41,657 nucleotides of DNA from Acidobacteriota bacterium (lineage in GTDB: Bacteria; Acidobacteriota; Polarisedimenticolia; J045), in assembly GCA_020350085.1 (NCBI GenBank), contig CP070706.1:3542780-3584436 (forward strand), in the 5' to 3' direction. A model generated the notes under the pieces. It searched no databases. It was not told the DNA's origin and worked only from the letters and a program-made list of their open reading frames with translations. A program made the position numbers and the translations under genes. Positions 3,054 through 34,222 of the stretch are shown here, piece after piece (position 1 is the stretch's first letter; each line of letters begins with the position of its first letter).

Positions 3054-4001
3054 CTACGGCGGCTTCACTCGGCGAAACGGAACGGGACGCAGGACATGGA
3101 TCGCCCCGCCGTCCAGCTCGAGCTTGATCCGGGTGGCCGCCTCGGCCACCAACTCGCCGTCGGCGTGGATCGGTGCCGGCGGCACGATCTCCATCTCGAG
3201 GCGCTCGCAGCGGCGGGACTGCACACGGGGATCCTCCTCGTGGCGCCCGCGAACGAGCCGGCCGAGAAGCCGCAGCGCGCCGAGACGCCCCATCGCCTCG
3301 GCCCAGCATACGTCCCATCGGGCATCGGACGGGTCGGCCCGGGGGGTCAAGCGAAAGCCACCCCCCGTCGTGGGACCGTTGCCCACGGTCAGCAGCGTCA
3401 CTGCCAGGTCGAACGGCTCGCGGTCGAGTCTCCCGCGCAGGCGCCACGGCCCGTCGCCCGCGATGAGCGTGCCGAGAATCCCGACGACGTAGGCGCCAGC
3501 CCCGGGCAGCGCCCACGCCCGGGCGCGTCTCGCGACCGCCGCGTCGAAGCCGATGCCGAGCGCGTTGGTGAACAGTAGCGAGCGTCCGTCCACGTCGCCG
3601 CGACCGACGTCGAGCGGGCGCGTCTCGGATCCCGACAGGCCATCGCGGAGCTCGCCGGGCCGGCCGGTGAAGCCCAGCGCGCTGGCGAGATCGTTGCCGC
3701 GCCCGATCGGTGCGATGGCGAGCGAGGGCCGATCGTCGGCGCAGCTTCCGACGTCGAGCAACCCAGCCGTCACGGTCTGGATCGTGCCGTCACCGCCCGC
3801 AGCGATGACGACCTTGGCGCCGCCCTCGGCCGCCTCGCGGGCCGCTGCCCTGCCCTCGCTCGCGGAGTGCGTCTCCAGGACCGTGACACCCGGTACGTCC
3901 GCACTAAGCAGCCGCAGCTCCTCTCGCAGGCGGCGCCGCGTCCGGCCGACACCCGCCGCCGGGTTGACGATGGCGACGATCCGCGGCGTTGTGGAACACA
4001 T
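3054..4001 (-). CDS. diacylglycerol/lipid kinase family protein (YegS/BmrU-like)
   Basis: 315 aa. Motifs IVAIVNPAAG, VVIAAGGDGTIQTV and APIGRGNDLA match the DAGK catalytic domain. Confidence 0.85.
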   Translation of the reverse strand: MCSTTPRIVAIVNPAAGVGRTRRRLREELRLLSADVPGVTVLETHSASEGRAAAREAAEGGAKVVIAAGGDGTIQTVTAGLLDVGSCADDRPSLAIAPIGRGNDLASALGFTGRPGELRDGLSGSETRPLDVGRGDVDGRSLLFTNALGIGFDAAVARRARAWALPGAGAYVVGILGTLIAGDGPWRLRGRLDREPFDLAVTLLTVGNGPTTGGGFRLTPRADPSDARWDVCWAEAMGRLGALRLLGRLVRGRHEEDPRVQSRRCERLEMEIVPPAPIHADGELVAEAATRIKLELDGGAIHVLRPVPFRRVKPP

Positions 4002-8943: not shown

Positions 8944-11900
8944 TCAGGGTCCTTCCTGGCCGCAGGCGTTGGCGGCATTGACGAGGTAGAAGTAGCTGAC
9001 CTCGTTGGCACCGCTGGCTTCGTCGTCGAACTGAGTCGTCTTCGTGTCGCCGAGGAGCTGGAAGCTTTCCGGCTGCGGCTCTTCGGAACGATACGCGTGA
9101 TACTCGGCGGCATCTGCTGGGGCGCTCCAGCTCAAACGAACGTGCGCCCGATTGACCAGCGAGACCGCCAAGTCCGTCACGGCTCCGGGGATCGGTTGAT
9201 CGTTGGTGTCCGTGACCGGTACGTAGACGCTGTTGTCGTCGGTCAGGCCACCGTTGTTCGGACCGGTGCTGCACGTCTCGTCGGTTTCGGCGCGAACGAG
9301 GTAGTAAACCGGCACGTCGAGCGGCGCCGACTCGTCCACGTGGGAGAGCCCGGCGATGCCCGCAGTGACCAGATTGGCTGCCGATGGCGTGAATCCTGGG
9401 CTCGTGTCGCGGTACAGCGCAAAGCTCCCACTCGCCCCGGAACCCCAGGAGAAAGTCTCATTCCACGAAACCGTCACCCCGGTCTCGCCGCACGCGTCGT
9501 TGTCGCGCGCCGAGACGACGCCGGCGAAGGTCGGCGTCTCGAGGCAGCCGCCGCACGCCGCGTAGTCAGGCAAGCTGCCGTCCTTCAAGATGAGATCGTC
9601 GATATTCCAGCCGGAGTACTGCACGGACCCATCAGCCTGCTGCTGGAACTGCAGCCGCACGACCGGTTGACCATCGACCAAGCCGGCCAGATCAGCCGAC
9701 TCCTGAATGAAGCTCGAGTTGCTGATCGTCCCCTCGCTGCGAAACAGCGGGCGACCCGGCCCGGCAAACAGCCACAGCGAGGCCTCGTCGCTGCTGTGCG
9801 TGTTCAGGCGGCGGTAGTAGATCAGCTTGGTGTTGGTCCAGCTCGTTGCATCGAAGTCGGGAGTCGTCGCCCGCTGGGTCGTGTTCGGCTCGTAATCCCC
9901 GCCGAAGCTGCCCTGACCGCTCAGATCGTGGCCGAGCACGTGCTGGTTGTTGTAGGCCTCGAGCGGATCGGACAAGCCCGTCGAACCACCCAACCCTTGC
10001 GGCACGCCGACCTCCCACTCGCCCTCGAGGGTCCACGACCCAGCGCCGTTTTCGAAGTTATCGCGCCAGTACAGCCCGGGAATGTCCCACGTGAAGGCTC
10101 CGAGCGGACTTCCACCGAGATCGGCCACCGCGCTGTTGCCGTGCTGGTCCGTGCTGCGAGCCCGCACGAACAGCTCGCTGCACATCTCGAGTTGATTGAC
10201 CAGCACAGAGTGGTCCGTCACGAGCCCACTGCTCGAAATCGTTTCTCCCAACGCCGGCGTCGTCCCCCACTCGAGAACCGTGTCCGCCGGCTCCTGAGTC
10301 TTCCACGTCACCGTCAGCCGTGCGTCGGTGATCGCCGTCGTGCCCAGCTCGCTGATCACCGGTCCCGCGCAGTCGGCTGCCGCCGTGGCGAACGAGACGC
10401 GCGGAGTGCCGGTCCCGTCATCTTCGTCGCGATAAGTGACGGTGATCGTGTCACCGTCGGCCGTCTGCAACGTGCCGTCGGGCGCGGGCACACCGGCGCT
10501 GGTCGTGATCGCCCCCGTGAATGTGGCGCTGTTCACGTCGGTCTCGGTCGCGACGATCGGCTCCGGATCCGGCTCCGACGAGCTGCTGACCCACAGCGTG
10601 ACGCTGTCGAGCGCTTCGGGATCCAGATTCAGGTCGAGATCCACCACGCGGAAGGTGACGCTGTCGGTGCAGGAGTAGACGGGCTCGTCGATGGTCACCT
10701 GCCCCGCGTGGCACGGCTGCAGACCGTCACCGAAATCGCCGAGTGTCTCGAAGTGATAGTACGACCCGCCGTTGTCGTCGATGGCCGCGTTGCCGAGCAC
10801 GTCGGCGGAGTGGACCTCGTAGTAGTAAATCGTGCACTCGGTGAGGCCCGTCAGCGTGATCGCGTGGTCGATCGTGCGTCCGAAACCGACTTCGCTCTGT
10901 GTGGGGGGGATCGTCTCGCCCCACACGACTTCGCTGTCCGCGAGCTCGTCGGTCGTCCACACGATCGTCCCGCTCACGTCGCTGAGGTCCCGTTCACCAA
11001 CGCCGGTGATCAGCGGCTTTTGGCAGTCCGCGCTGGCTTGGTCTTGCTGGATGACGTTGAGGCCACCCTCTCCGTCGTCGGCATCGATGTACTCCACGAT
11101 GATCGCGTCGTCATGAACCACGGAAACGAGCCCGTCGCCAGCTGCCGGCGGCGTGCCCGTGGTGTAGATCTCGCCGGCGTACTTACCGGAGCCCGGCTTG
11201 GTCTCGGTGAGCGTGACGGTCTCGCGCTCGGTCTCGCTGTCCGACCAGACCTCGACCGTCATCGAGCCGGCTCCCACGTTGCCATCGATGACGCGGATGC
11301 CGACGCGGTGATCACAGCTGTAAAAATCCCTATCGAGCCGGACGCGCCCCGCCGAGGGCTGGATCAGCTGACTCGTGCCGCCGGTCACCACGAGCGCGAA
11401 GGTGGCGTCGTCATCGGGGGTGTCGAGGTAGGCGTCCTGGTTGATCTCGGCCGCTTCGATCTCCACCTTCCAAATGCCGGCCTCCGGGTTGGAGATGAAG
11501 ACGTTTTCGACCGTATCGAGGCCGTTCGGCTCCCCTCCCGGCGTCGAGTATTTGCCCTCGAGCAGCCCATGATTGCCGTGATAGATGGTCCCCGAGGGCG
11601 AGGTCACCTTCAGATTCAGGTCGTTGATGCGGTGCATGGCAGCAGATGTGGTTCCCGGTGGATCGGGGTAGACCATCGTCACCTTGAGCTCGGACTCGCC
11701 GGCGGCGACATCCACGTCGTAGATCGAGAAGTCGCTCAGCTCGAGGATCACCTCCTCGTCGATGATGAAGCTGCTCGCCGCGCGTTCTTTGGCCAGTCGC
11801 GCGCTCGGCCGGCCCCAGCCTTGGTGCACGCGCGTGAGATCGTCGCTCTCGCCGACGAAATCGTACTGCTGGGCATTGTTGATCAGCAGCGCCTTGATCG

Positions 11901-13620
11901 TCGAAAAATGCGGCTGCTTCTCGAAGACCGTCGTGCCCTCGGGATCGGTCTCCCAGACGTTGTCGGCCCACATCTGCACCATCAGGCCCAAAACGCCGGC
12001 GGACTCGGGGGTGGCGGCAGATGTCCCGCCGAAGCTGGACGTGTAGCTGTCGCCGGTCGTCGTGGTATAGATGTTGTCGTACCAGTAGTTGATGTCCGGC
12101 TTGATGCGCCCGTCTTCGGCCGGCCCGATCGACGCGCCAAAGTCCCACTCGTCGTCAGATGTGGTCAGTGTGTCCTTGTGCTTGATTCCGCCAACGCTGA
12201 TGATGTTCTTGGCCCAAGCCTGAGGGCGGCTATCCTGGTTGCCAGCATTGGACTGCGATTGCGTGATGGCAATATCGAGACGCCAGATGATGTCGTCCAT
12301 CTCGTGTGAAACGCTGGTATACGAGAGCGTCCGGGCCGCACCCCAAGAGTTCGTCTGAAAAGACGCGAAGTAGGGATCGTTCTTCAGCTCCTCTGTGTGT
12401 GCGAAGCGATCGCCGAGAAAATCGTAATCCGCGAAAATTCCTTGCGCTTCGGGACAGGGCATGTGTCCCGTCCCCTTCGCCTCCCCGTCGCCGTCGCGGT
12501 TGCCGTTACCGAACACGATGCCGAACGTGCTCGTTCCGTGGCTCGACGTGCTGTTGCCACCGTGAAGAATCAGACCGTCGAAATCCTTGTGCGTCTCCTC
12601 GATGCCGGAGTCGAGCACCTCGCCGCGAACGCCCTGCCCGCAGTAGCCGAAATTGTCCTCGAGCCAGTTCGTGCCGGCGTCCTCACGGACGAGGTCCATG
12701 TCGTTTTCGGGAGCGGACCACAGGTCGATCCAAAGAACGTCGTCGTGACCGGCGATGACCCGCAGCTGCTCACGCGTGACGTTGAGCTCGATGATGTGCC
12801 CATTGGGCCAGTTCTCGACGATCTCCGCGCCGAGGTCTTTGGCCGCCGCCGCGATGCGCTCTTTGCCGGTCTCGCCCCACTCGAGCGCGACGACACGAAC
12901 GCGCTGCGTGGGCGCGGAGAGAAGCTGCTGCTCGTCGAGCCACGCTCGCAGCGGCGGACCGATCCTGTAGCCCGCGTGGTACGGCTCGATCCTCTCAACG
13001 AAGTCGAGCGCCCTGACGAGTGACACCCGCGATGGATCCAAGCGCACGATGTGGGCGTGGTGAGGAACGAACTGAAACAGCTCCGCCCCGAGCTCCACGA
13101 GAGCCGCCCGCCACTCGGGTAGTCCGATCGTGCGGAACTGCACCAGCCACAGCTTGCCGGCTCGCGGCAGTGCCAAGCCCAGCGCCGGGGTGGGCATCGA
13201 CTCGCCCGGAAGAACCTCTGCGTCTCGCAGTTCGAGGGCCCGCTCGAGCGGCCTCGCTTCGGACCACGATGCGCCGCCGTCGCGACTGAAGGCAAACCAG
13301 CGCCGCGCTCGTGCTCCGCTGCCGAGGTCTCCCGCCAGCTCGTCCCATGTTGCGAAGGACGCCTGCGCCGACGGGTCGCGGCCGGTCGGCCCCCTCTGGA
13401 CGAGGGCCGTCGTCTCGCGCAGCAGCACGCGCGCGAGTCCTGCGTGGGGCACGGTGAGCTCGACCCAGACCTTCGTGGCCCGCTCGCCGGTCTCGATCTC
13501 GAGGGTGGGCGGGCCGAATGCGGCGCCGGTTCCCGCGCTGGCCAGTACCACGGGGCCGAACAAAAGCGAGGTCAGGACAAACAAAGCGAGTCGCATCGGG
13601 CGTAGCTGGCGGCAGAGCAT
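8944..13620 (-). CDS. secreted multidomain subtilisin-family (S8) serine protease
   Basis: Catalytic triad contexts VLDSGI, SSHGTSTFGIV and GGTSAATPESAG. Signal MRLALFVLTSLLFGPVVLASA, with ATG at 13618-13620 or 13594-13596. There is an I9-like propeptide and a P-domain-like segment after the catalytic domain. Two copies of a [beta-sandwich ending xVxYxDxDDG + FN3-like] unit follow, then a jelly-roll-like domain and C-terminal FN3-like modules. Confidence 0.9.
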   Translation of the reverse strand: MLCRQLRPMRLALFVLTSLLFGPVVLASAGTGAAFGPPTLEIETGERATKVWVELTVPHAGLARVLLRETTALVQRGPTGRDPSAQASFATWDELAGDLGSGARARRWFAFSRDGGASWSEARPLERALELRDAEVLPGESMPTPALGLALPRAGKLWLVQFRTIGLPEWRAALVELGAELFQFVPHHAHIVRLDPSRVSLVRALDFVERIEPYHAGYRIGPPLRAWLDEQQLLSAPTQRVRVVALEWGETGKERIAAAAKDLGAEIVENWPNGHIIELNVTREQLRVIAGHDDVLWIDLWSAPENDMDLVREDAGTNWLEDNFGYCGQGVRGEVLDSGIEETHKDFDGLILHGGNSTSSHGTSTFGIVFGNGNRDGDGEAKGTGHMPCPEAQGIFADYDFLGDRFAHTEELKNDPYFASFQTNSWGAARTLSYTSVSHEMDDIIWRLDIAITQSQSNAGNQDSRPQAWAKNIISVGGIKHKDTLTTSDDEWDFGASIGPAEDGRIKPDINYWYDNIYTTTTGDSYTSSFGGTSAATPESAGVLGLMVQMWADNVWETDPEGTTVFEKQPHFSTIKALLINNAQQYDFVGESDDLTRVHQGWGRPSARLAKERAASSFIIDEEVILELSDFSIYDVDVAAGESELKVTMVYPDPPGTTSAAMHRINDLNLKVTSPSGTIYHGNHGLLEGKYSTPGGEPNGLDTVENVFISNPEAGIWKVEIEAAEINQDAYLDTPDDDATFALVVTGGTSQLIQPSAGRVRLDRDFYSCDHRVGIRVIDGNVGAGSMTVEVWSDSETERETVTLTETKPGSGKYAGEIYTTGTPPAAGDGLVSVVHDDAIIVEYIDADDGEGGLNVIQQDQASADCQKPLITGVGERDLSDVSGTIVWTTDELADSEVVWGETIPPTQSEVGFGRTIDHAITLTGLTECTIYYYEVHSADVLGNAAIDDNGGSYYHFETLGDFGDGLQPCHAGQVTIDEPVYSCTDSVTFRVVDLDLNLDPEALDSVTLWVSSSSEPDPEPIVATETDVNSATFTGAITTSAGVPAPDGTLQTADGDTITVTYRDEDDGTGTPRVSFATAAADCAGPVISELGTTAITDARLTVTWKTQEPADTVLEWGTTPALGETISSSGLVTDHSVLVNQLEMCSELFVRARSTDQHGNSAVADLGGSPLGAFTWDIPGLYWRDNFENGAGSWTLEGEWEVGVPQGLGGSTGLSDPLEAYNNQHVLGHDLSGQGSFGGDYEPNTTQRATTPDFDATSWTNTKLIYYRRLNTHSSDEASLWLFAGPGRPLFRSEGTISNSSFIQESADLAGLVDGQPVVRLQFQQQADGSVQYSGWNIDDLILKDGSLPDYAACGGCLETPTFAGVVSARDNDACGETGVTVSWNETFSWGSGASGSFALYRDTSPGFTPSAANLVTAGIAGLSHVDESAPLDVPVYYLVRAETDETCSTGPNNGGLTDDNSVYVPVTDTNDQPIPGAVTDLAVSLVNRAHVRLSWSAPADAAEYHAYRSEEPQPESFQLLGDTKTTQFDDEASGANEVSYFYLVNAANACGQEGP

Positions 13621-13779
13621 AAGTCCATCCTCTCGTGAGCACAACGACCGGTTTTCCCCGCTCCTGCGTGCAGGGGCTCGCCGAACATATACGACGCTCG
13701 GCGCCACATCATAAGGGAATCGTCGACCTCGCCCGGCAACACCTTCGCCAAGCGTGCGTTTTCGCCCGATGAGAGCCAA

Positions 13780-15825: not shown

Positions 15826-16884
15826 TCAATCGTCGATTACACGCGTGTTGGGGTAGAAGCTGCTCCAAGCGAACCAGAAGGCCGGCTGGACGACCAGCTC
15901 ATCGAGCCGCGTGCCCTTCTCGGGCCCTGCGATCGCGAGTCCGCGGGCGAGATCCCATCTCGAGGATGTCTGCTTGTCGACGATCGCGGACTCCTGATTC
16001 TCGAACACGAGCGTCACGCCGTCCGAGCGGGCGACGTGCGCTCGCACGCCACCGTCGGGAACCCGCGCGACGACCAGTGGCAGCTCACCGATCTCGCCCT
16101 GAACGAAGCCTCCCGCCGACAATCTCCCGTCTGCCACGGCGACAGCATGGGGCCCGCGGGTGATTCCGTGGACGAGCGCTTTGGCCGGCATGCGCTGTCG
16201 CAACCACTCCGTGCGAAACATCCCTGTCCGCTGCGGATCTTCGAAGTAGCTCTCGTAGCGCGAGTTGGTGATCTCGCGATCCTTGACCAGCAGCTTCGTG
16301 TCCGGATGCTGCTTCACACATCGCTTCCAGCGCGTTTGCATCACAGGAATCATCATCAGGCGAGTGCCCTTCCACGCGCCGTGGAGCGCTTCGCCGGTAA
16401 TGTGGCTCCACAAGGATCCGGTCTGTCGATCCTGCATGATGAGGCTGTTACGCCACAGTTTGCCCGAGACGATGAAATCGAGCGTTCTGCCGTCGACTGT
16501 GCGAACGTGAACCACGCCCGCGTGGCACAGCGGTCACCAGCTGGCCGCAATGGGTGTATCGCCGATCACGTCGTTCACGGTCTCGTGCGCATCGAGCTGC
16601 CACAGCGAATACGCCTTCGCCTCGCCATGGTGCACGATTCCCAGCACCGGTTCCTCAGCACGCATCTGAGCGTGGGCTGCATCCCCGCTGACGAACCAGG
16701 GCTCGAGGATCGCCGGAATCGCCCCAGCTGGCAGAACCGTGTACATCGGCGCGCCATCGAACGTGCCGAACACCTCCGGCTCCGGGCGCTGCGCGAGCGC
16801 GGGCGCAGCGAACCCGGCAAGCAGGAAGGCCACGCCAACAACCCACCGGCCAACGAGTTGAATTCGATCCGTTCGGCTCATCAT
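15826..16884 (-). CDS. DUF3179 domain protein with one in-frame TGA at 16534-16536 (candidate selenocysteine; otherwise a nonsense pseudogene)
   Basis: Track ORFs 16534..16899 and 15826..16515 share one frame. Read-through gives ...VNDVIGDTPIAASW-TGA-PLCHAGVVHVRTVDGRTLDFIVSGKLWRNSLIMQDRQTGSLWSH..., a continuous DUF3179-like sequence. The N-terminal signal is VVGVAFLLAGFAAPALA. The ATG at 16882-16884 is preceded by GGAG and overlaps the upstream stop. Confidence 0.65.
16497..16530 (-). promoter_or_regulatory. candidate bacterial SECIS-like hairpin directly downstream of the in-frame UGA
   Basis: In the mRNA, CUGUGC (16525-16530) pairs with GCACAG (16497-16502). Inside this, CCACG-CGGG-CGUGG (16512-16525) forms a stem with a G-rich apical loop about 14-17 nt after the UGA. 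Confidence 0.35.
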
Positions 16885-17543
16885 CTTCTCCGTTTGCACT
16901 GCGCACGACCGAACGGCTCGGGGTGAGCCTCGATGAGCAAGTCGAGGTCCGCTTCGTCGTCCACGTCACGCAGCGCGGGGAGCAGGGCGATGCGTGCACC
17001 AGCATCCGAGAGTCGCTCGCGCGTGACCTGCAGCGTGCGCTCGGAGCTCCACGGAATGCGCTCAAACGCGCTCGGGAACGGCCGTGCGAGCCCGATGAGG
17101 TAGTAGCCGCCGTCGAGAGCCGGCCCGAGCACGGCGTCGGCGCGCATCAGCTCGTCGAACGCCTCGCCGAGAAGTACGGGCGTCACGTCGACGCAGTCCG
17201 TTCCGATGGCCACCACGCGCCGTGCACCCTCGTCGAAGGCTTCCTCGAAGGCCCCCGACAGTCGCTCGCCGAGATCCCCGGCTCGCTGCGCGACGGCTTC
17301 GAACCGTGGGCCGAGCCACGCGGAGACCTCTTCGATCGCCCCGGGAGGATCGACCACGGCGCGCTGAACCAGCCCCGGCCGCTCGAGCCGGCCCGCCTGT
17401 CGAGCGACCTGTTCGGCGAGCTCACGGTACAGCCGTGCCGCACCGTGTGCGCCGAGCCGAGCGATCAGACGCGTCTTGACCCTTCCCGGCCGCGGTGAGC
17501 GCACGAAGACGAGCAGTAGCTCCGTTCGATCACGATTCGTCAT
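16881..17543 (-). CDS. DUF2064 / TIGR04282-like nucleotidyl- or glycosyl-transferase
   Basis: LLLVFVRSPRPGRVKTRL at the N-terminus, then VVAIGTDCVDV and GPALDGGYYLIGL, all typical of DUF2064. The stop overlaps the DUF3179 start. Confidence 0.8.
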   Translation of the reverse strand: MTNRDRTELLLVFVRSPRPGRVKTRLIARLGAHGAARLYRELAEQVARQAGRLERPGLVQRAVVDPPGAIEEVSAWLGPRFEAVAQRAGDLGERLSGAFEEAFDEGARRVVAIGTDCVDVTPVLLGEAFDELMRADAVLGPALDGGYYLIGLARPFPSAFERIPWSSERTLQVTRERLSDAGARIALLPALRDVDDEADLDLLIEAHPEPFGRAQCKRRR

Positions 17544-17663
17544 CACGCAACAAACGCTCCAGCCCGGAGTCTTCAGGAGCCCTTCGGCTGAAACGCGCGA
17601 GAGTGCACCCGCTGCGGTCTCTTCCGCCGCAAACGTATCGTCCCATCAGGGGGCCGCCACCTC

Positions 17664-18476
17664 TCAGTGGGGCGCGGTCCGCGCACCTTCGGACGAGGAT
17701 GACTCACGAGCGGCCGTTTCGCGAACGCGGGCCAGCCGCTCCGGCGAAGCACCGAGCGCGTCGAGAAGAAGCATCCACTGGTGCCGGAAGAACGTGCAAA
17801 GCAGACCCTCTCGTTCCCAACGACGCGGCGAACTCGGCAACGGCTGATCGAGCAGCACGGGCGGCGAGATGCGGCGCAGTGCTCGCACGAGGTAGACATC
17901 CTCGAACACCGGAACGGCGCGAAAGCCACCGAGCTGTTCGAACGTCTCGCGCCGCACGAACAGACCCTGGTCTCCATACGGGAGCTGGCGCCAGCGTGTG
18001 CGCCACGCGACGAGCCTCTCGATCAAGCGGAATGACCGTCTGCTGCCATGGAGAGCGAAGCGGAAAGCTCCCCAGCTCCTGTCGGGCCGAGTGAGCGCGT
18101 CGGTGATCGCCCGCGCCGCGTCGGCGGAGGGCTCACAGTCGGCGTGCAGGAACCACAACACCTCGCCCCGCGCCTCCCGCGCACCCGCGTTCATTTGAGT
18201 CGCACGCCCGCGGGGGGTCCTCATCGCCCGCACACCGGCCCTGCGGCGCGCCCGCTCGAACGTATCGTCTTGACTGCCGCCATCGCAGACGATGATCTCG
18301 AGCGGCGTCTCGCTGCACGATAGAAGATCGAGCACGCGGTCGATCCGCTGCTGCTCGTTGAGTACCGGGATGATGGTCGTCACTCGCACCGGGACCGCGC
18401 CGAGCTTTCCGTGATCACGATCGTAGCCCAGATGATTCTCAACGACTTCTCCGCTCACCGCGTCCAGGCGAACCAC
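17664..18476 (-). CDS. family 2 glycosyltransferase, TIGR04283-like
   Basis: TTIIPVLNEQQRI...EIIVCDGGSQDDT...RGRATQMNAGAREARGEVLWFLHADCEP. Possible GTG starts at 18476 or 18458; the latter overlaps the upstream stop (GTGA). Confidence 0.8.
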   Translation of the reverse strand: MVRLDAVSGEVVENHLGYDRDHGKLGAVPVRVTTIIPVLNEQQRIDRVLDLLSCSETPLEIIVCDGGSQDDTFERARRRAGVRAMRTPRGRATQMNAGAREARGEVLWFLHADCEPSADAARAITDALTRPDRSWGAFRFALHGSRRSFRLIERLVAWRTRWRQLPYGDQGLFVRRETFEQLGGFRAVPVFEDVYLVRALRRISPPVLLDQPLPSSPRRWEREGLLCTFFRHQWMLLLDALGASPERLARVRETAARESSSSEGARTAPH

Positions 18477-19975
18477 CGTTCGAGCAAGCGCTTGATGCCC
18501 GGTTTGAGGCGAGCTCGGTTGTAGGCGTCACCAATCTTTTTCCAGACCTCGGCCTGCGTCGGGTAGGGATGAATCGTCTTGGCGATGGTTCCCAGACCGG
18601 CGCGCGCGCTCATCACCGCCGTGATCTCGCTGATGATCTCGCCGGCGTGCGCCGCTACGACGCTCGCACCGAGAATCCTGTCGCTCCCCTGCCGTAGATG
18701 GACTTTCGCCATCCCGGCTTGGTCGCCGTCGAGTACCGCGCGATCGACAGCGCCGAACTCCTGCACGATCGTCTGCACGCGCAGACCCCTCTGCTCGGCC
18801 TCGCCGGGAGAGAGACCGACGTGGGCTAACTCCGGATCGGTGTAGGTGCACCACGGTATGATCAGGCCGCTCAGCTTGGCCTTGAACGGGAACAGAGCGT
18901 TCTGAATCACCACGCGAGCCATCGCGTCCGCGGCGTGCGTGAACTGGTACATCGACGCGACGTCGCCGGCGGCGAAGATCTTTCGGTTGGTCGTGCGCAG
19001 ATGATCGTCGACGCGCACCCCGGCGCTCGCATCGTACTCGACACCGGCGGCCTCGAGCCCGAGCCGCTCGACGTTCGGCGCCCGACCGACGGCGAGCAAG
19101 ATTTCGTCAACCTCGACGAGTCGCGCCCCCTCGTCGCTGGAGTAAGCGATCTGCTTCGCATCGCGGCCGCGCGAGACCTGCTCGATCTTCGCTCCGAGCA
19201 CCACGTCGACGCCATCTCGTTCGAGCGCCCGCTGGACACGCTCGGCCAGCTGCGGATCGTCCTTGATCAGGATCCGCGGCATCGTCTCGAGCAGCGTGAC
19301 TCGGGCGCCGAAACGACAGAGCGCTTGCGCCATCTCGCAGCCGATCGGGCCTGCGCCGATGACCGCCAGACGTGGCGGCAGCTCGGTGAGCGAGAACAAG
19401 GTCTCGTTGGTCAGATACCCGGCTTCAGTCAATCCCGGAATCGGCAGCTCGGCCGCGCGCCGTCCCGTCGCGATCACGGCCTTGCTGAATGCCAGTCTCT
19501 TCTCATCGACCGCTAGCGTCTGCAAACCTGTAAATCGAGCCTCACCGAAGAACACGTCCACACCGAGGCTCTGAAAGCGAGCCGCAGAATCGTGCGGGCT
19601 GATCGCTGCCCGCAAACGCCGCATGCGCTCCATCACCGCCGGAAACGCGACCTGAACACCGTCTGGAACGAGCACGCCGTAGTCGCCGGCCTCTCTCACG
19701 CGCGCCACGGCACGAGCGGCGCGAAGCAGTGCCTTCGACGGCACGCAGCCGACATTCAGGCAATCGCCTCCCATGAGGTGACGCTCGATGAGAGCCACCC
19801 GTGCGCCGAGGACTGCCGCTCCTGCCGCCGCGACGAGACCGGCCGTACCACCGCCGATGACGACGAGATTGTAGCGAGATGCGGGCTCTGGATTGACCCA
19901 TTCGGGCGGGTGCACGTGGCCGACGAGTTTGCGGTTGTGCTCGTCGGCAGGTGAGACCAAGACTCGCTCCATCAT
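18455..19975 (-). CDS. class I pyridine nucleotide-disulfide oxidoreductase, MerA-like (no NmerA domain)
   Basis: MMERVLVSPADEHNRKLVGHVHPPEWVNPEP...NLVVIGGGTAGLVAA...GGDCLNVGCVPSK (redox disulfide). A C-terminal dimerisation domain contains HPYPTQAE. AGGAGA lies about 8 nt before the ATG at 19973-19975. The 609 aa track ORF has an Arg/Pro-rich spurious extension. Confidence 0.85.
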   Translation of the reverse strand: MMERVLVSPADEHNRKLVGHVHPPEWVNPEPASRYNLVVIGGGTAGLVAAAGAAVLGARVALIERHLMGGDCLNVGCVPSKALLRAARAVARVREAGDYGVLVPDGVQVAFPAVMERMRRLRAAISPHDSAARFQSLGVDVFFGEARFTGLQTLAVDEKRLAFSKAVIATGRRAAELPIPGLTEAGYLTNETLFSLTELPPRLAVIGAGPIGCEMAQALCRFGARVTLLETMPRILIKDDPQLAERVQRALERDGVDVVLGAKIEQVSRGRDAKQIAYSSDEGARLVEVDEILLAVGRAPNVERLGLEAAGVEYDASAGVRVDDHLRTTNRKIFAAGDVASMYQFTHAADAMARVVIQNALFPFKAKLSGLIIPWCTYTDPELAHVGLSPGEAEQRGLRVQTIVQEFGAVDRAVLDGDQAGMAKVHLRQGSDRILGASVVAAHAGEIISEITAVMSARAGLGTIAKTIHPYPTQAEVWKKIGDAYNRARLKPGIKRLLERWFAWTR

Positions 19976-20303
19976 CACATTCTCTCTCCTGCCTGCTCGC
20001 GCGCTCGCGTCGACTCGACCAACGGGTTTCGTGAACGATTCGGATCGACCCCGACCAGACCATACTCTACGACGAGGCGCGGGCTGCTGGCTTCGAATCG
20101 TCGCGGGAGGCCTCGATCGTCGTGGCGGAGATCGATGACGAATCGCGCCGCGTACGCGCCAGCAGGCAGATGGAATGGCGCCGCCTGACGCCGCCGCGGC
20201 GCGCCGCGAGCCGCTGGGGGCGAGTCCCCCACGTGTCGGCACGGCGGCCAACGGCGGGCGAGGCAGATCGATTCGGGCTAGCATGTCGCTTCGAGGAGGA
20301 GGG

Positions 20304-20540: not shown

Positions 20541-20558
20541 ATCCACAGGAGAACGTTG

Positions 20559-20882
20559 ATGGCTCGCCAAGTCATGGAAGAGATCAAGCAAGAGATCGCC
20601 GCGAACAAGATCATCCTGTACATGAAGGGCACCCCGGAGGCCCCACGCTGCGGCTTCTCGGCGGCCGCGGTGGACGTGCTGCGGCAGATAGGGAACCCGT
20701 TCAAGGGCATCAACGTGCTCGAGGATGCTGAGAAGTGGGCCGCGATCAAGGAGTACTCCGATTGGCCCACGATCCCCCAGCTCTACGTGGACGGTCACTT
20801 CATCGGCGGCTGTGACATCATGCGCGAGATGTTCTTCAAAGGAGAGCTCAAACCGATCATCGAGAAGGCTGTCGGCCACTGA
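20559..20882 (+). CDS. grxD: Grx4-type monothiol glutaredoxin
   Basis: [18 protein letters not shown]...[19 protein letters not shown], with the CGFS active site. GGAGA lies 6 nt before the ATG. Confidence 0.9.
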
Positions 20883-21509: not shown

Positions 21510-22427
21510 TCAGATCGTCCGGCGCTTGGCCTCCGTGCGCAGGGGGGCAAGCCCACTGTCTCGTGCGATGCGCTGCAGACGGCTTGCAGCGCTGCGTGTG
21601 GCGAGATTGCTGATGTAAAAGCGTGTCAAGCCGATCTCGATCAGCCGCCGCAGCGTTTCGCCAGCCACTTCGTCCGCCGACAACCCGCGCTCGTTGAAAT
21701 CTCTCGCCAGCTCGGCAGCCGGCACCGGTAGGAACTGCTGCAACCGAGAGAGTGTCTCGGATCGTGCGCTTCGATAGTAAAACACACCCGCGAACAGCGG
21801 AAGATCGAGCCGCTGGCGCTCCGTCTCTCTTACGAGCTGCTGGAGCGGGCCCAGCTCGTGATGTGAGACGACCTGGGTCAGTACGAAGTCGAGGTCGTCG
21901 CGATGCTCGAGCAGGAACCCGACCTGCTCGGCCGGCTCGCGGTACGGATTGGCCCAACCTCCGAGCAGCATCCGAGGGTGTTCTCGCCGCAGTCGCTTGC
22001 GCAGCTGCCACGCGCGCGGCAAGCAGCGCTCGATGCCGTCGTGTGGGTCGCCGCCGAGAACGACAAGCCCGGGAAATCGTTCCCGGCGCGCGCGCACCGC
22101 GTAGCGCAGGCAGTACTCGAGCGGATGCTTGAGCGTCAAGAAGGGCACGATCCGCTCGCGAACCGCGTCGGTGCCCATGTTCTTGGTCAAGTGGGCGAGG
22201 TTTTCCTCTTCGTCAGTGCCGATCGCGTTGTCCGTCAGAAACACGACCGTGTCTCGCGTCGAGAGGCGGTGCACCGCGTGATAGACGTCGATCCACGCCT
22301 CCATCGCGCGCACGCCGTCGAGATCGCGCCTCGGTGGACGCAGCTCGACCGCGAGCAGCGGGTGCGGATCCGCCAGCCGCTGGCGCAGCCGGAACGGCTC
22401 TTCATGAGGGAGTTGAGGTTCTGTCAC
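21510..22427 (-). CDS. methylenetetrahydrofolate reductase (MetF)-family TIM-barrel protein
   Basis: LLAVELRPPRRDL near the N-terminus, VVLGGDP, and TRFYISNL near the C-terminus resemble MTHFR. The GTG start at 22425-22427 overlaps the upstream stop (GTGA). The track ORF extension to 22658 looks spurious. Confidence 0.7.
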   Translation of the reverse strand: MTEPQLPHEEPFRLRQRLADPHPLLAVELRPPRRDLDGVRAMEAWIDVYHAVHRLSTRDTVVFLTDNAIGTDEEENLAHLTKNMGTDAVRERIVPFLTLKHPLEYCLRYAVRARRERFPGLVVLGGDPHDGIERCLPRAWQLRKRLRREHPRMLLGGWANPYREPAEQVGFLLEHRDDLDFVLTQVVSHHELGPLQQLVRETERQRLDLPLFAGVFYYRSARSETLSRLQQFLPVPAAELARDFNERGLSADEVAGETLRRLIEIGLTRFYISNLATRSAASRLQRIARDSGLAPLRTEAKRRTI

Positions 22428-23389
22428 CTGACATCCCGGACGCTCGTGCCCGCCGGCCATGCGTCGCGGGCTGCTCGCGACGAACGGCCGACCGGCGTGC
22501 GCCCGGTCATTGTAGGCTCTGGCGCCGCCGCCGCGAGACCCCGCACGAGACGCGCCAAGCCGCCGAGATAGGCACCGTGAATTAGGATACGTCCGAACAG
22601 CAGCACCAGTATCGCGCCGAGCGCGATGAATGCGGCCGGCGCCGTGCGCGGATCCCACATCGAGCGCAGCATCGCGGCGGCCGTCATCAGCACCATGTCA
22701 GTCAAGAAGGCCGTCCCCGCGGCGATCCACGGCCGGATCGAGCGCACGACGCGGTCGGCCGACCACAACAGCGCGAGCAGACCGCTGCGCCTCTCGAGAG
22801 CCACGACGCGCGCCCGTGCAAGATCGGCAGCGAGCACCATCGGCGCGACGAGCAACAGCCAAAACAGATCCGGGACCAGACCGTATGCGATCGCCAGACG
22901 CTCGGAGCTGGCTCTCGAGGCGGCGCGCTCGACCTGGGATCCGAGAAAGCCATGAGTGGCGAAGGAGACGAGGCCCACCCACACGAGCGCGGTGATCGCA
23001 ATCGAGATCAGCGCCGGGCTCTGGGCCAGCGCCCGCGCCCAGGCGGAGCGTAGTCCCGGCCACGGTCCCGCGGCGGCACGCATCAGCACGGAGTCTGACC
23101 AGGCGAAAGCGACCATCGCGAGCAGTCCGAGAAGGCCCCACGCTCCGCTCACGGTGTCGCTCCAAGCAAATCTTTCCCAGGGCAGATCGTCGAGCAGGGC
23201 GACGTCGAGCCCGCGCGGGCTCCAAGCGGGATCCACGCGCCACGCCAGCGGCTCGTAAATCGCCGTTGTCGCGACGAGGGTGCCGCAAGCTGCCAGCAGC
23301 GCGACGAGCACGAGCACCGACAGCGCCGCCGTGGGGCGTTGCAGCACGCGCCCCAACGAGGCCGCGAGCGCCGCGAGCACTGCGGTCAT
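22424..23389 (-). CDS. hypothetical polytopic membrane protein
   Basis: Several hydrophobic spans (LSVLVLVALLAACGTLV, AWGLLGLLAMVAFAW, ALISIAITALVWVGLVSF, LFWLLLVAPMVLAA, FIALGAILVLLFGRIL). The ATG at 23387-23389 overlaps the M1 peptidase stop (ATGA). Confidence 0.6.
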   Translation of the reverse strand: MTAVLAALAASLGRVLQRPTAALSVLVLVALLAACGTLVATTAIYEPLAWRVDPAWSPRGLDVALLDDLPWERFAWSDTVSGAWGLLGLLAMVAFAWSDSVLMRAAAGPWPGLRSAWARALAQSPALISIAITALVWVGLVSFATHGFLGSQVERAASRASSERLAIAYGLVPDLFWLLLVAPMVLAADLARARVVALERRSGLLALLWSADRVVRSIRPWIAAGTAFLTDMVLMTAAAMLRSMWDPRTAPAAFIALGAILVLLFGRILIHGAYLGGLARLVRGLAAAAPEPTMTGRTPVGRSSRAARDAWPAGTSVRDVR

Positions 23390-25677
23390 CCGATCCGCCC
23401 CAGCGCCCACAGGCGCTGGACGAGCTGATGAAACAGTCCCACCATGACACGCACTGTCGACTCCCTGTCCGGCGCTGCGGACCACTGGTTGTTGCTCAGA
23501 TCGCGCTCGAACACCCAGCGCCGCCGCGGATCGACACGCACGGCCACCAGGCGGGACGGGTAGCGTCCCTCGATCGCCGTCCACCAGCCCTCACCGTTCC
23601 AGACAACCAGCTCGCGAGACCCGTCCTCGAACGTCAGCTCGATCTCGACCGGAAGCTGCCAGCGGCCGAGCTGGCGAACGACGATGCGACATACTTGCTG
23701 CGGGACGCGTGTCGGGTGTGAGCCACCGTCGTCCCCCGGCTCTTTTTCGAGCGACGGCCCTTCGGAGCAGTGCACGGGATCGACGGCGTAATCGGCGTAC
23801 CCAGCCACACGCCATACCTGCTCGAAGTAGTGCGCAGCATCGAGACCGATCGGCAGCGCGGAGGGATCGCGCTCGCCGCGCTGTTTCATCTCCCGAGAGA
23901 CGGCCGATGCAGCATGGATGAAATCCTCGGGGCGCGCATGAGCCAGCCAGTGCTGGCGCGCGTAGCGCCGCAGTGCGCGGAATACGGCACGCTCGCCGGC
24001 GACTCTCCGGTAAGCTTCGAGCGTCAGCGCGGCGAGCCGGTAGGTGTGCATCCGATAAGTCTCGCGCTCACCGTAGCTCCAGCCTCGCCGCCAGACGACG
24101 TCGAGCCCGGCGACCGGCTTCCATTGGCGTCGCTCGAGCCACGGGAACCCGATCGATTCGCCGTAGTACGTCAGAGGCGGTAGATCGACGAGATACCGCG
24201 CGGGTCGACCCGTACCCAAGCCGTGCAGTGTGCCGTTTCCGGCCGCGCCGACGAGCCCGAGCGGCCCGGGCGCGGCGTCCGGCTCGATCAACGGCACGGC
24301 TCGGTACTGCCACGGGGAGAACGAGCTGACCAGCCGATCCTCACCAAAACCCCACAGTAAGGCCGTCGACTCGGCGAACGTGTTGAACCCTTCGTCGAGA
24401 AACGGGTTCTCGAATTCGTCGTTGGCGACGATGCCGTAGAACCACTGATGCCCGACCTCGTGGACGGTCACCGCCTCGGGGTTGAGCCGCCCGCTGGGCG
24501 TCAACAGTCGCGCGCCGGCGGTGATCACCATCGGGTATTCCATGCCGCCGGCTCGACGTGCGTCGTGTTGCGGATCGACCGCTCTCAACACCGGATACGG
24601 ATAGGCGCCGAAAGCGCGACCGAACCAGACGAGTCCGACCTCCATCGCGCGCAAATGGCGCTCGGCCAGGTGTTGGTGCTCGGGCTGGAGGTAGACCTCG
24701 AGCGTCACGTCGCGCAGCAACATCTCGGCTCCCGTCGCCTCGGGACCGAGCAGCGCGAGCCAACGCGCTTCCTCGAGCGGATCGCGGTGCTGCCCGCCGC
24801 GAAAGCGTCGCCCCACGACGACGAAATCGGGATCCGCGAACCAAGCGAAGTCGTGAACCTCTCGTGCCTCGTACGTCACGGAGTATCGTTCCGTATCGTC
24901 GCGGGGTGTCTCGTTGATCCGCACGCCGGTTGCGGCGACTTTCCCTCGGTACTGCTCGGGCAGATTCAGCGTCACGCTGTAACGGCCGTAGTCGGCATAG
25001 AACTCGGTCAGCCGATGAAACTGGGGACAGTTCCAGCGCGCCGGAGCGGATGGCGTCTCGCGCGGCGGCTCGAACACGCCCAGTTTGGGAAACCACTGAG
25101 CCGCGGCGATGAAATCACCGGCACGGCCCGTCCGCGCGCGGATCGCCGGCAGGCGGCTCTTGAACTCCAGCTCGACCGTGATCGCCCCGCCGGGCGCGAC
25201 AGCCTCGGGAAGCGCGAGTCTCGCGACGGTCCGGTCCTCGACGTTCCCGTCGTCCGGCGCCGTCGTGCTCAGACGGGCGCTCCAGTCCTCTCCGCCCGGA
25301 CCGCTGACCCTCGTCACCTCGATGCCGCCGAAAGATCCCGCCTCGCTCAGCGATCGGCCTGAAGGGGGGCTCGTGCGGGTCAATCCTTCCAGCATCCAGG
25401 TCGTGCGTCGATGCGCGAACGCGTTGAGGTAGAGACGGAACCACAGCTCCTGAGTCGGACTGGACGTGGTGTTCTTCCAGCTCACTCGCTCTCGTGCGTG
25501 AATCGAGCCGGTTTCTGCGTCGTAACGCGCCTCGATCGTGTACCCGACGCGATGCTCGTCGGAGCGCGGGCTGGCGCGCACGCCGAGGCACGCCGCGAGC
25601 AGGACCGTCGAGACAACGAGTGCTGCAGCCGCGGCACCGCGTCGTGCCCCCGCTGCGGAAAACGCGACCTTTTTCAT
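23386..25677 (-). CDS. M1 family metallopeptidase (aminopeptidase N-like), probable lipoprotein
   Basis: VHEVGHQWFYGIVANDEFENPFLDEGFNTF (HExxH plus E). The signal carries a lipobox LLAAC. ATG at 25675-25677; the track starts at TTG 25686. Confidence 0.9.
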   Translation of the reverse strand: MKKVAFSAAGARRGAAAAALVVSTVLLAACLGVRASPRSDEHRVGYTIEARYDAETGSIHARERVSWKNTTSSPTQELWFRLYLNAFAHRRTTWMLEGLTRTSPPSGRSLSEAGSFGGIEVTRVSGPGGEDWSARLSTTAPDDGNVEDRTVARLALPEAVAPGGAITVELEFKSRLPAIRARTGRAGDFIAAAQWFPKLGVFEPPRETPSAPARWNCPQFHRLTEFYADYGRYSVTLNLPEQYRGKVAATGVRINETPRDDTERYSVTYEAREVHDFAWFADPDFVVVGRRFRGGQHRDPLEEARWLALLGPEATGAEMLLRDVTLEVYLQPEHQHLAERHLRAMEVGLVWFGRAFGAYPYPVLRAVDPQHDARRAGGMEYPMVITAGARLLTPSGRLNPEAVTVHEVGHQWFYGIVANDEFENPFLDEGFNTFAESTALLWGFGEDRLVSSFSPWQYRAVPLIEPDAAPGPLGLVGAAGNGTLHGLGTGRPARYLVDLPPLTYYGESIGFPWLERRQWKPVAGLDVVWRRGWSYGERETYRMHTYRLAALTLEAYRRVAGERAVFRALRRYARQHWLAHARPEDFIHAASAVSREMKQRGERDPSALPIGLDAAHYFEQVWRVAGYADYAVDPVHCSEGPSLEKEPGDDGGSHPTRVPQQVCRIVVRQLGRWQLPVEIELTFEDGSRELVVWNGEGWWTAIEGRYPSRLVAVRVDPRRRWVFERDLSNNQWSAAPDRESTVRVMVGLFHQLVQRLWALGRIG

Positions 25678-32063: not shown

Positions 32064-34028
32064 TCAGGAGGACGGATCGCGGACCGCCTTGCCGTCGTCG
32101 TAGCGCAAGGCTTCGGCGCCGCCCTTGACGCCCGGACGCCCCGGAAAAGCGCGGCGTTCAGCCACGTCGGATCCGATCAGCCCGTCGAGAATCGCCAACG
32201 GCTCAACCTCGAGCGCCCTCGGACCGCTGATCAGCAGGCCCTCGACGGCGCGGTGCACCGCTTCGGCCAGCTCGCGGGCGATCTCGAGACCCATCTCGGC
32301 CTCGCGGCCCTGCTTTTCCGCCTTCGCCATGCGCTCGAGGATCGCCGACGGCACGTGGACGCCGGGGACCTCGGCCGCCAGGTGCTCGGCCTCGCGGAGG
32401 GATCCGAGCGGATGGATCGTCGCCACGATCGGCACTCGGACGTGGGCGACGAGTCCCGCGAACCGCTCGAAAGACTCGAGGTCGAACACGGGGCTCGTCA
32501 CAGCGAACTCCGCACCAGCATCGACCTTCCACTCGAAGCGCCGGACCTCTTCGTCGAGATCGGGTGCGGCGATCGTGGCCAGCACCCCACTGAAAAAGGC
32601 CGTCGGATCACCGATCGGATTGTCGCCGACGTCGAGACCGTGATTGAGGCGTGTGACGACGTTGGTCAACCCGATCGCGTCGATATCGAAGACCCCACTG
32701 CTCCAGGACGACTCGCCCGGCCGCGGTGCCTGGCCGGTGAGCAACATCAAGTTTCTGAGCCCGAGAGCGTGTGCGCCGAGCAGGTCCGACTGCATGCCGT
32801 CGAGGGCGCGGTCGCGGCAGCTGTACTGGAGGACGGTCTCTGTGGGTCCGGCGGCGGCGACGCGCTCCATCACGAGGCGTGCCAGGGCGAGCGAGCTCAT
32901 GCGCGCCATGGCCCGCGGATCATCCGTCACCATCAGGCCGTCCACGCCAGCTCGAGCCAGCTGCTCGGCCCGGCCGAGTAGCTGCGCCGTTTCCCAGCCG
33001 TGAGGTGGAGCCAACTCGACCAGACAGGCGAACCTGCCGTGAGCTACCTGTCGAGCCAGGCGCGATTTCTGCTCGCGCGGCACGGTTCGGGGGGCTGGCG
33101 CGGTGGAAGGCGAGCGGGGCGGCGCGACGACGACACGCGGAACGACACGCCGGCCGGCAGCCTCTCCGAGCGCCTCCCGCATCGACCGCACGTGCTCGGG
33201 GGTCACGCCGCAGCAGCCTCCGACGACGCGGGCTCCCGCGCGAACGAAGCGCCGCGCGTAGCGACCCATGTAGGCCGGCGAGGTCAAGTACAGCATGCGT
33301 CCGTCGACGGTGCGCGGAATTCCCGCATTGGGCATCGCCGCCAGCGGACGGGACGTGCTCGCGGCCATCGCCTCGATGACGGACAGCATCGAAGCCGGTC
33401 CGACCGAGCAGTTCACGCCGAGCAGCTCGGCGCCGGTGGCCTCGAGCTTCTGAGCGATCCACTCGGGAGGAACGCCTTCTGGCGTACGTCCTTCCTCGTC
33501 GACGGTCATCATCGCGATCACGGGCAGCTCGCCGCTCTCGCGCACGGCGCGTACCGCCGCCTGGATCTCGACCAGATCGCTGAAAGTCTCGAGAGAGAGC
33601 AGATCCACGCCGCCCTCGACGAGCCCCTGGACCTGCTCGCGAAACAGCGCCACCGCCTCATCGACGGTGGTCGGTCCCCAAGGCTCGAGCCGGATGCCCA
33701 GCGGTCCGACGGAGCCGGCAACGAAGACGCGGCCGTTGGCCGCCTTGCACGCCAGCTGGGCGCCGGCGCGATTGATTTCGCGCGTTCGACCACCCAGACC
33801 GTGTGCTTCGAGTTTGGGGCGGTTGGCGGCAAACGTGTTGGTCTCGATCACATCGGCGCCGGCGCGGATGAACTCGGTATGGCTGCGCTCGACGAGCTGC
33901 GGGCGGGACAGATTCAGCTCTTCGTAGCAGCGGTTGAGGAACACACCGCGGCTGTAGATCTCCGTGCCCATACCCCCGTCGAAGAGGGCCACGCGTTCGG
34001 CGACGAAATCGAGAAAGAGATGCTTCAA
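32064..34028 (-). CDS. yitJ: bifunctional homocysteine S-methyltransferase / methylenetetrahydrofolate reductase
   Basis: The N-terminal half reads LFDGGMGTEIY...VIETNTFAAN...GGCCGVTPEHV (homocysteine-binding domain). The C-terminal half is MTHFR-like (FACLVELAPP...). The probable TTG start at 34026-34028 is preceded by GGGAGA; the track ORF extends to 34190. Confidence 0.85.
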   Translation of the reverse strand: MKHLFLDFVAERVALFDGGMGTEIYSRGVFLNRCYEELNLSRPQLVERSHTEFIRAGADVIETNTFAANRPKLEAHGLGGRTREINRAGAQLACKAANGRVFVAGSVGPLGIRLEPWGPTTVDEAVALFREQVQGLVEGGVDLLSLETFSDLVEIQAAVRAVRESGELPVIAMMTVDEEGRTPEGVPPEWIAQKLEATGAELLGVNCSVGPASMLSVIEAMAASTSRPLAAMPNAGIPRTVDGRMLYLTSPAYMGRYARRFVRAGARVVGGCCGVTPEHVRSMREALGEAAGRRVVPRVVVAPPRSPSTAPAPRTVPREQKSRLARQVAHGRFACLVELAPPHGWETAQLLGRAEQLARAGVDGLMVTDDPRAMARMSSLALARLVMERVAAAGPTETVLQYSCRDRALDGMQSDLLGAHALGLRNLMLLTGQAPRPGESSWSSGVFDIDAIGLTNVVTRLNHGLDVGDNPIGDPTAFFSGVLATIAAPDLDEEVRRFEWKVDAGAEFAVTSPVFDLESFERFAGLVAHVRVPIVATIHPLGSLREAEHLAAEVPGVHVPSAILERMAKAEKQGREAEMGLEIARELAEAVHRAVEGLLISGPRALEVEPLAILDGLIGSDVAERRAFPGRPGVKGGAEALRYDDGKAVRDPSS

Positions 34029-34182
34029 TGCGGCCGATTCTCCCGCCGGCAGGCGCTCGCCGCCGCCAGCTGGTGATCCTGACCCCCGTCCGAGGGGGCG
34101 TTTCCCAGTATTCCACACGCCGTGGCCGGAGTCGCTGACGTCCGGGAAGTCGGCGGCGGCTCCGCGCTCGCGGGTCCACGCA

Positions 34183-34222
34183 GGTAGCAAAGGAGGCCGC
34201 CCCGTGGCGACCCCTTTGCTCC
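34183..34222 (-). other. long GC-rich stem-loop in the OmpA/yitJ intergenic region
   Basis: AGCAAAGG (34186-34193) pairs with CCTTTGCT (34213-34220), and pairing continues inward to an ACGG/CCGT loop. That gives about 16 bp with one bulge. No U tract follows on either strand. Confidence 0.4.

Follow-up and report, generated by a model that had tools for sequence, protein, structure and literature searches.

Sequence comparison indicates that the in-frame UGA at positions 16536-16534 (minus strand) of the analyzed DNA, a 41.6-kb window on the 4,111,298-bp contig of an Acidobacteriota MAG, is very probably decoded as selenocysteine (Sec) with the help of a functional SECIS element, inside one gene encoding a putatively exported DUF3179 protein. 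If so, UGA is translated as Sec in the source Acidobacteriota genome. Within this DUF3179 subfamily the Sec form prevails in many sediment-associated phyla, and the accompanying SECIS shows unusually strong conservation and imposes a constraint on the protein sequence.

Only one internal stop, the TGA at 16536-16534, interrupts the minus-strand frame 16899..15826, and six sense codons (P-L-C-H-A-G) separate it from the GTG at 16515, taken by ORF finders as the start of a 229-aa downstream ORF. When Cys is put in place of the stop, Pfam DUF3179 (PF11376) aligns with the read-through product over its entire length, the match covering profile positions 3-292 of 292 and running through the TGA position (E = 2e-68; 231.4 bits, the cut-off being 27); thus, the two ORFs are halves of one domain. 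An earlier, sequence-only reading of this DNA had described the same arrangement of one frame, one TGA and six sense codons before the GTG, and had proposed a single DUF3179 protein upon read-through, and it was right on both points.

The complete coding sequence spans 15826..16881 of the minus strand, its final TGA stop at 15826-15828 included, and encodes 351 aa, of which residue 116 corresponds to the in-frame UGA. Translation likely starts at the ATG at 16881-16879, the ATG at 16884 being the alternative; a putative Shine–Dalgarno-like motif, GGAG, is found 6 nt 5' of the former (16888..16891, minus strand). The N-terminus (16792..16881, minus strand; MSRTDRIQLVGRWVVGVAFLLAGFAAPALA followed by Q), as read from the translation, resembles a signal peptide, with a basic n-region, a hydrophobic core and an A-L-A motif, and would direct export of the protein; in the structural model of a Cys-containing homologue, P0003, the N-terminus forms a helix of low confidence. 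The candidate Sec codon, identified by reading the codon and comparing the column, occupies 16534..16536 and opens the U-P-L-C motif (16525..16536, minus strand), which, according to the translation and the homologue alignment, is the Sec form of the family's CPLC.

In GenBank the gene is split into two CDSs, UCF67280.1 (115 aa, starting with MSRTD) and UCF67279.1 (229 aa). Similarly, among the 120 database proteins closest to it, approximately 100 are fragments of 227-231 aa that begin just past the TGA column, as expected from gene callers that take UGA for a stop, and split or truncated annotation of selenoprotein genes is a recognized systematic problem (PMC13326102). The two CDSs could in principle reflect a real split gene yielding two separately translated DUF3179 half-proteins of 115 and 229 aa, as in the source record and given the GTG seven codons past the TGA. 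However, no Shine–Dalgarno sequence is visible before this GTG, the downstream starts chosen by gene callers vary among the orthologues, and the split would cut through the most conserved motif of the family; nor does it give any reason for TGA alone in 72 out of 72 sequences, for a covarying hairpin and for constrained synonymous sites, all described below. We therefore consider a split gene very improbable and suggest, as a correction of the annotation, that UCF67280.1 and UCF67279.1 should become one CDS for a 351-aa selenoprotein. A second TGA-split ORF pair in the window, at 22626-23258 of the plus strand, was rejected as a shadow of a minus-strand membrane-protein gene.

In order to compare the TGA with its counterparts, DNA of the relatives was taken from species-representative genomes by an alignment-based scan, and the codon at the homologous column was read. 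Among 80 sequences, including the window, this codon is TGA in 72, TGT or TGC in seven and GAA in one, and it is never TAA or TAG. The 71 other genomes with TGA, all independently assembled, represent more than 10 bacterial phyla, the Sec-form loci coming from Acidobacteriota/Thermoanaerobaculia/Holophagae, Gemmatimonadota, Zixibacteria, Krumholzibacteriota, Eisenbacteria and Fibrobacteraceae, and also from Calditrichota, Ignavibacteria, Marinimicrobia, Deferribacteres and one deltaproteobacterium. The Cys forms are mainly archaeal (Nitrososphaerota, one haloarchaeon), with one Bacteroidetes and one Armatimonadetes genome in addition. At least 109 open codons precede the TGA in every Sec-form locus, and approximately 194-251 follow it in all of them but one (86 codons). 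The recurrence of TGA at a single column in 71 other genomes, flanked by open frames, is far above chance and rules out a random nonsense mutation, decay with scattered stops, and an error of assembly. As for the latter, a one-base difference would be enough to produce TGA from a true TGC or TGT, but 71 assemblies, produced independently by many projects and from many phyla, all show the TGA together with a hairpin that most Cys forms lack, which makes an error of sequencing or assembly extremely improbable.

The same column carries Cys, within W-C-P-L-C-H, in seven out of nine full-length homologues in the alignment, and in 12 out of 13 non-TGA genomic sequences, in agreement with the claim of the sequence-only reading that the TGA replaces the first Cys of CPLC. 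Both Cys- and Sec-containing orthologues, which that reading had suggested looking for, do exist (the seven and the 72 sequences, respectively), and the scattered stops that it had named as the sign of decay are not seen among the orthologues, where stops are confined to the one TGA column. An exhaustive search with the Cys-form homologue P0003 yielded 7,875 representative clusters, and the motif was covered in 122 of the best 150 of them. Of these 122 diverse representatives, 99 have CxxC; the first motif position is Cys in 111 and the second in 102, and in 12 sequences the first Cys is kept with Ala, Ser, Thr, Val, Ile or Asp at the second position.

TGA also serves as an ordinary stop, ending 24 of the 31 complete genes predicted in the window, which shows that the code is not reassigned and that the use of UGA at position 116 is a case of site-specific recoding. 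Recoding to a residue other than Sec could take the form of Cys insertion via a tRNA(Sec)-like tRNA(Cys) and a SelB paralogue, or of genome-wide reassignment of UGA to Trp or Gly. The latter is excluded by the TGA-terminated genes. The former has a precedent in selC*/SelB* systems, described as inserting Cys in a SECIS-dependent manner (PMC7609411), and the window sequence reads alike for Cys or Sec insertion; however, these systems have been reported in Syntrophobacterales and Desulfobacterales, not in Acidobacteriota (PMC7609411), and Sec/Cys pairing at CxxC is the standard signature of selenoproteins (PMC9312934, PMC13188914). Overall, non-Sec recoding is highly unlikely, and Sec is by far the better candidate for the residue at this codon.

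Downstream of the UGA, the mRNA can form a bSECIS-type hairpin (16501..16521, minus strand), identified by folding, covariation in orthologues, RNAalifold and synonymous constraint. It consists of the 5' arm GCGGGCGUG (16521-16513), the loop GUU (16512-16510) and the 3' arm CACGUUCGC (16509-16501), so that the 9-bp stem begins 12 nt, and the apical loop 21 nt, past the UGA. Its predicted energy is −13.1 kcal/mol (z = −4.3), and none of 200 shuffled sequences is equally stable. According to the published criteria, a bSECIS has an apical loop of 3-9 nt, an upper stem of 4-16 bp and 16-37 nt between the UGA and the loop, with G in the first two loop positions, usually followed by G or U, and an MFE of at most −7.5 kcal/mol (PMC13188914). 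The window hairpin, with its 3-nt GUU loop, 9-bp stem, 21-nt spacing and −13.1 kcal/mol, falls within these constraints. Longer segments of 43-76 nt around the UGA fold no better than shuffles (z from −0.5 to −0.75), the core hairpin alone being significant, and no Rfam family, those for SECIS included, matches, whether gathering thresholds or permissive settings are applied.

Conservation of the hairpin was scored on a codon-anchored, gap-free alignment of the 72 sequences, where columns 26-33 pair with columns 37-44, and G34 and U35 of the loop (columns 34-36) are invariant. In this register 93.1% of cells are paired, compared with 23-56% in control registers obtained by shifting the 3' arm by 1-3 columns. 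Compensatory changes are seen in five out of eight pairs (32 cells), a count reached by none of 500 shuffles, although such shuffle statistics overstate independence, because the orthologues are related and the hairpin lies inside a conserved coding sequence. For example, 13 sequences have A-U in place of G-C, combining a Val-to-Ile replacement with a synonymous UAC-to-UAU change. The same 6-bp core is predicted independently by RNAalifold.

Two further comparisons point in the same direction. First, seven to eight of the eight pairs can form in 64 out of 72 Sec forms (mean dG −11.1 kcal/mol), whereas the Cys forms mostly have two to six pairs (mean dG −3.2 kcal/mol), the hairpin being absent from most of them; the two exceptions retaining it, one with Cys (L067) and one with Glu (L014) at the column, look like recent conversions from the Sec form. 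Second, wherever the stem includes a four-fold degenerate third position, the base there allows pairing in 96-100% of loci, while 36-59% would be expected from the use of these codon families in other parts of the respective genes. These controls (slid register, Cys forms and synonymous sites) answer the concern about coding conservation and kinship only in part.

The conserved structure differs from the one drawn in the sequence-only reading. The outer stem proposed there, CUGUGC/GCACAG, is present in the MFE fold of the window sequence but is not conserved in the orthologues; the inner stem-loop CCACG-CGGG-CGUGG gives way to the hairpin described above, CGGG not being the conserved loop; and the apical loop, placed by that reading 14-17 nt after the UGA, lies further downstream. 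Covariation around the UGA, which it had recommended examining, was indeed found, albeit for this different hairpin, and its central claim of a selenoprotein rather than a random nonsense mutation is well supported by the TGA column in the 71 other genomes and by the covarying bSECIS-type hairpin.

Based on these features, decoding may be envisaged as follows. The mRNA hairpin 12-33 nt 3' of the UGA would act as a bacterial SECIS while the UGA is being read; GCGGGCGUG-GUU-CACGUUCGC, whose loop begins with G and U, would recruit SelB·GTP·Sec-tRNA(Sec), Sec would be inserted at the UGA and termination avoided, and the product would bear U-P-L-C where the family has C-P-L-C. The comparison shows the correspondence between UGA and Cys, the conservation of the UGA and a conserved, covarying hairpin, while actual insertion of Sec, export and the chemistry of the motif are inferred.

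None of selA, selB, selC (tRNA-Sec) and selD was found within the 41.6-kb window, which contains no tRNA and no SelA, SelB or SelD domain, and none of these genes, including tRNA-Sec, was found in the flanks of the orthologous loci. The absence of the Sec machinery from the window would be compatible with the TGA being a genuine stop, the gene being a pseudogene or a relic left after loss of the machinery, with truncated products, if any; loss of Sec does occur in the family, as it is replaced by Glu in L014 and by Arg in another relative, P0012. On the other hand, both halves of the gene are intact, the 9-bp SECIS hairpin is kept at −13.1 kcal/mol, and the same arrangement is kept in 71 other genomes without additional stops, whereas decay would bring other lesions and loss of the hairpin, as in most Cys forms. 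A genuine stop is thus quite improbable, and decoding of the UGA as Sec agrees better with these observations.

The DUF3179 gene of the window is preceded by a TIGR04282-family (DUF2064) gene (16881..17546, minus strand; Pfam DUF2064, 3.7e-33; TIGR04282, 195 bits against a cut-off of 134), a TIGR04283-family gene (17664-18476, minus strand) and a gene for an FAD-containing oxidoreductase (18455-20284, minus strand), the latter two also scoring above the curated cut-offs. According to the family names, TIGR04283 and TIGR04282 are “arsenosugar biosynthesis glycosyltransferases.” The stop codon of the TIGR04282 gene (TGA, 16883-16881) overlaps the start codon of the DUF3179 gene, hence the two genes are probably co-transcribed and translationally coupled. 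The arsenosugar-type, FAD-oxidoreductase and ExbD neighbours seen in the window occur in none of the other loci, and we treat the linkage of these upstream genes to DUF3179 as lineage-specific. The largest neighbour cluster is common to just 11 out of 72 loci, and thus the gene context gives no function; neither a conserved neighbourhood nor a structural homologue pointing to a specific biochemical role was found. One may speculate that DUF3179 is the last gene of an operon with the FAD-dependent disulfide-type oxidoreductase and the TIGR04283 and TIGR04282 genes, and that its U-x-x-C binds or reduces an extracytoplasmic As or Se metalloid as a step of the arsenosugar-type pathway. We consider this decidedly unlikely; if true, the family, which numbers more than 7,000 sequence clusters, would for the first time be placed in a functional context.

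The structure was modeled with AlphaFold2 for the Cys homologue P0003 (pLDDT 88.7, pTM 0.77). The model is all-beta and consists of two similar modules, with the C-P-L-C knuckle in the first one, between strands E97-104 and E109-114. A PDB sequence search revealed no relative, and Foldseek comparison of the P0003 model with the PDB yielded nothing at E <= 0.001. Since the first motif position is better conserved and some relatives do without the second Cys, Sec is most likely the reactive nucleophile. Judging by this sequence pattern, Sec116 most likely provides the reactive selenol, Cys119 being a resolving or ancillary partner, and U-x-x-C most likely constitutes a selenol/thiol redox centre on an all-beta extracytoplasmic protein; less likely, it is a centre for binding a soft metal or metalloid.

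These features can be compared with several known systems. The Rieske-type [2Fe-2S] ferredoxin domain also has a Cys-Pro-containing knuckle in a beta-hairpin, and Rieske-type structures recur among the Foldseek matches of the P0003 model, although these matches are local (probability approximately 1.0, 82-102 aligned columns, target-normalized TM 0.52-0.61). Membership in this group was rejected, as no match is found at E <= 0.001 and the CxH...CxxH ligand set is absent; the His following CPLC is replaced by Tyr, Phe, Gly or Ser in relatives, and the Rieske His ligands are not conserved.

Thioredoxin-fold UxxC/CxxC oxidoreductases (DsbA-like and thiol-disulfide isomerase-like) are similar in having Sec at the N-terminal residue of CxxC, in the replacement of the second Cys by Ser, Thr or Ala in relatives, and in extracytoplasmic location, the latter predicted for DUF3179 proteins. 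However, the P0003 model is all-beta and two-module, with the motif between strands, whereas a thioredoxin fold would place CxxC at the N-terminus of a helix, and thioredoxin-fold structures are absent from its Foldseek matches, so membership was rejected here as well, and the resemblance might rather suggest how the motif works.

Like the bSECIS model and the SECIS of E. coli fdhF, the window hairpin is an in-gene stem-loop located after the UGA, with a small loop starting with G-U. In sequence it does not resemble the fdhF SECIS, being specific for the gene family and interlocked with the coding of H-T/A-G-V-V-Y/H-A/V-R; SelB binding is predicted.

Finally, DUF3179 (PF11376), with the motif UxxC/T, is an already catalogued family of prokaryotic selenoproteins (Zhang et al., 2022, PMC9312934; 2026, PMC13188914); both reviews credit the family to Zhang and Gladyshev (2007, PMC1976440). 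Judging by the table order, it is probably the “OS_HP1” of that paper, which comprises three Sec genes and two Cys homologues from an Olavius deltaproteobacterial symbiont (PMC1976440). Neither 75Se nor mass-spectrometry evidence for the family was found in PMC9312934, PMC13188914 and PMC1976440, and, as far as shown there, its selenoprotein status is based on computation only. The window gene, which reads W-[TGA]-P-L-C-H with the UGA at the first motif position, is thus a correct rediscovery, an unannotated instance of a known family rather than a new kind. It shares with the family the Pfam domain, Sec as the first residue of U-x-x-C, the existence of Cys homologues and a SECIS-like hairpin after the UGA, with nothing essential being different; particular to the window copy are its origin, an Acidobacteriota MAG, and its annotation as a pair of CDSs. 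Our analysis adds little beyond the catalogued family, the additions being the prevalence of the Sec form, the conservation of the SECIS, and the higher conservation of the Sec position within the motif.

Two close relatives carry neither Cys nor Sec at the Sec column, i.e., the alignment column of the motif's first Cys: in the DNA locus L014 (protein P0002) the codon at 3318-3320 is GAA (Glu), and the homologous protein P0012 has Arg. Seven out of eight SECIS stem pairs are still present in L014, and thus the sequence suggests that Sec has been replaced there recently by a residue incapable of the same chemistry. Similarly, an Armatimonadetes Cys form (L067, 3204-3260), with TGT at this column, has kept a SECIS-like hairpin with seven out of eight pairs in register, which agrees with a recent Sec-to-Cys conversion.

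The rest of the motif and the number of gene copies also vary. An Eisenbacteria orthologue (L042, 3310-3330) has the motif W-U-P-L-L-R, with Leu instead of the second Cys, and both the UGA and the hairpin are present. Zixibacteria genomes contain tandem pairs of DUF3179 genes (L076, 2057-3447, and L077, 1898-3288), the upstream copy being the Cys form (C-P-L-T) and the downstream copy, the Sec form (U-P-L-C). The top match (408 bits) of the exhaustive search with the Cys-form homologue P0003 is the 1,587-aa protein P0122, which has six separate DUF3179-like stretches, a multi-domain architecture that is unusual for the family.

Upstream of the selenoprotein gene and on the same (minus) strand, the window encodes, within 16881-20284, an FAD-containing oxidoreductase (NF004991, 774 bits), whose N-terminal extension of approximately 105 aa has no Pfam match, and TIGR04283 and TIGR04282 proteins, annotated as "arsenosugar biosynthesis glycosyltransferases" with scores exceeding the curated cut-offs for both. 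The stop codon of the TIGR04282 gene overlaps the start of the DUF3179 gene (TGATG). A Grx4-type monothiol glutaredoxin is encoded divergently at 20556-20882 (+). This arrangement of the oxidoreductase, TIGR04283, TIGR04282, and glutaredoxin genes around DUF3179 was observed in none of the 83 other loci.

Elsewhere in the window, a very large ORF of 1,611 aa (8944-13779, minus strand) has a subtilase S8 domain (residues 388-656) as its sole Pfam match, about 950 residues being left without domain assignment, and a 708-aa ORF (32064-34190, minus strand) is a fusion of homocysteine S-methyltransferase (PF02574) and methylenetetrahydrofolate reductase (PF02219) domains. Another pair of same-frame ORFs with a single TGA between them, at 22626-23258 (+), was considered as a second read-through candidate and rejected: it is the antisense shadow of a minus-strand ORF (22424-23584) that encodes a membrane protein of 386 aa with no Pfam assignment.

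Finally, some neighbours of the DUF3179 gene are clade-limited, found in L025, L027, L030, and about seven or eight further Krumholzibacteriota-type loci, where they lie from approximately 100 nt to 1 kb 5' of it. A Cys-rich protein of approximately 155 aa, encoded in 10 such loci, resembles, by eye, an MvhD/FlpD-type hydrogenase iron-sulfur subunit, and a protein of approximately 278 aa, encoded in eight, has a similar by-eye likeness to periplasmic substrate-binding proteins, both assignments being putative.
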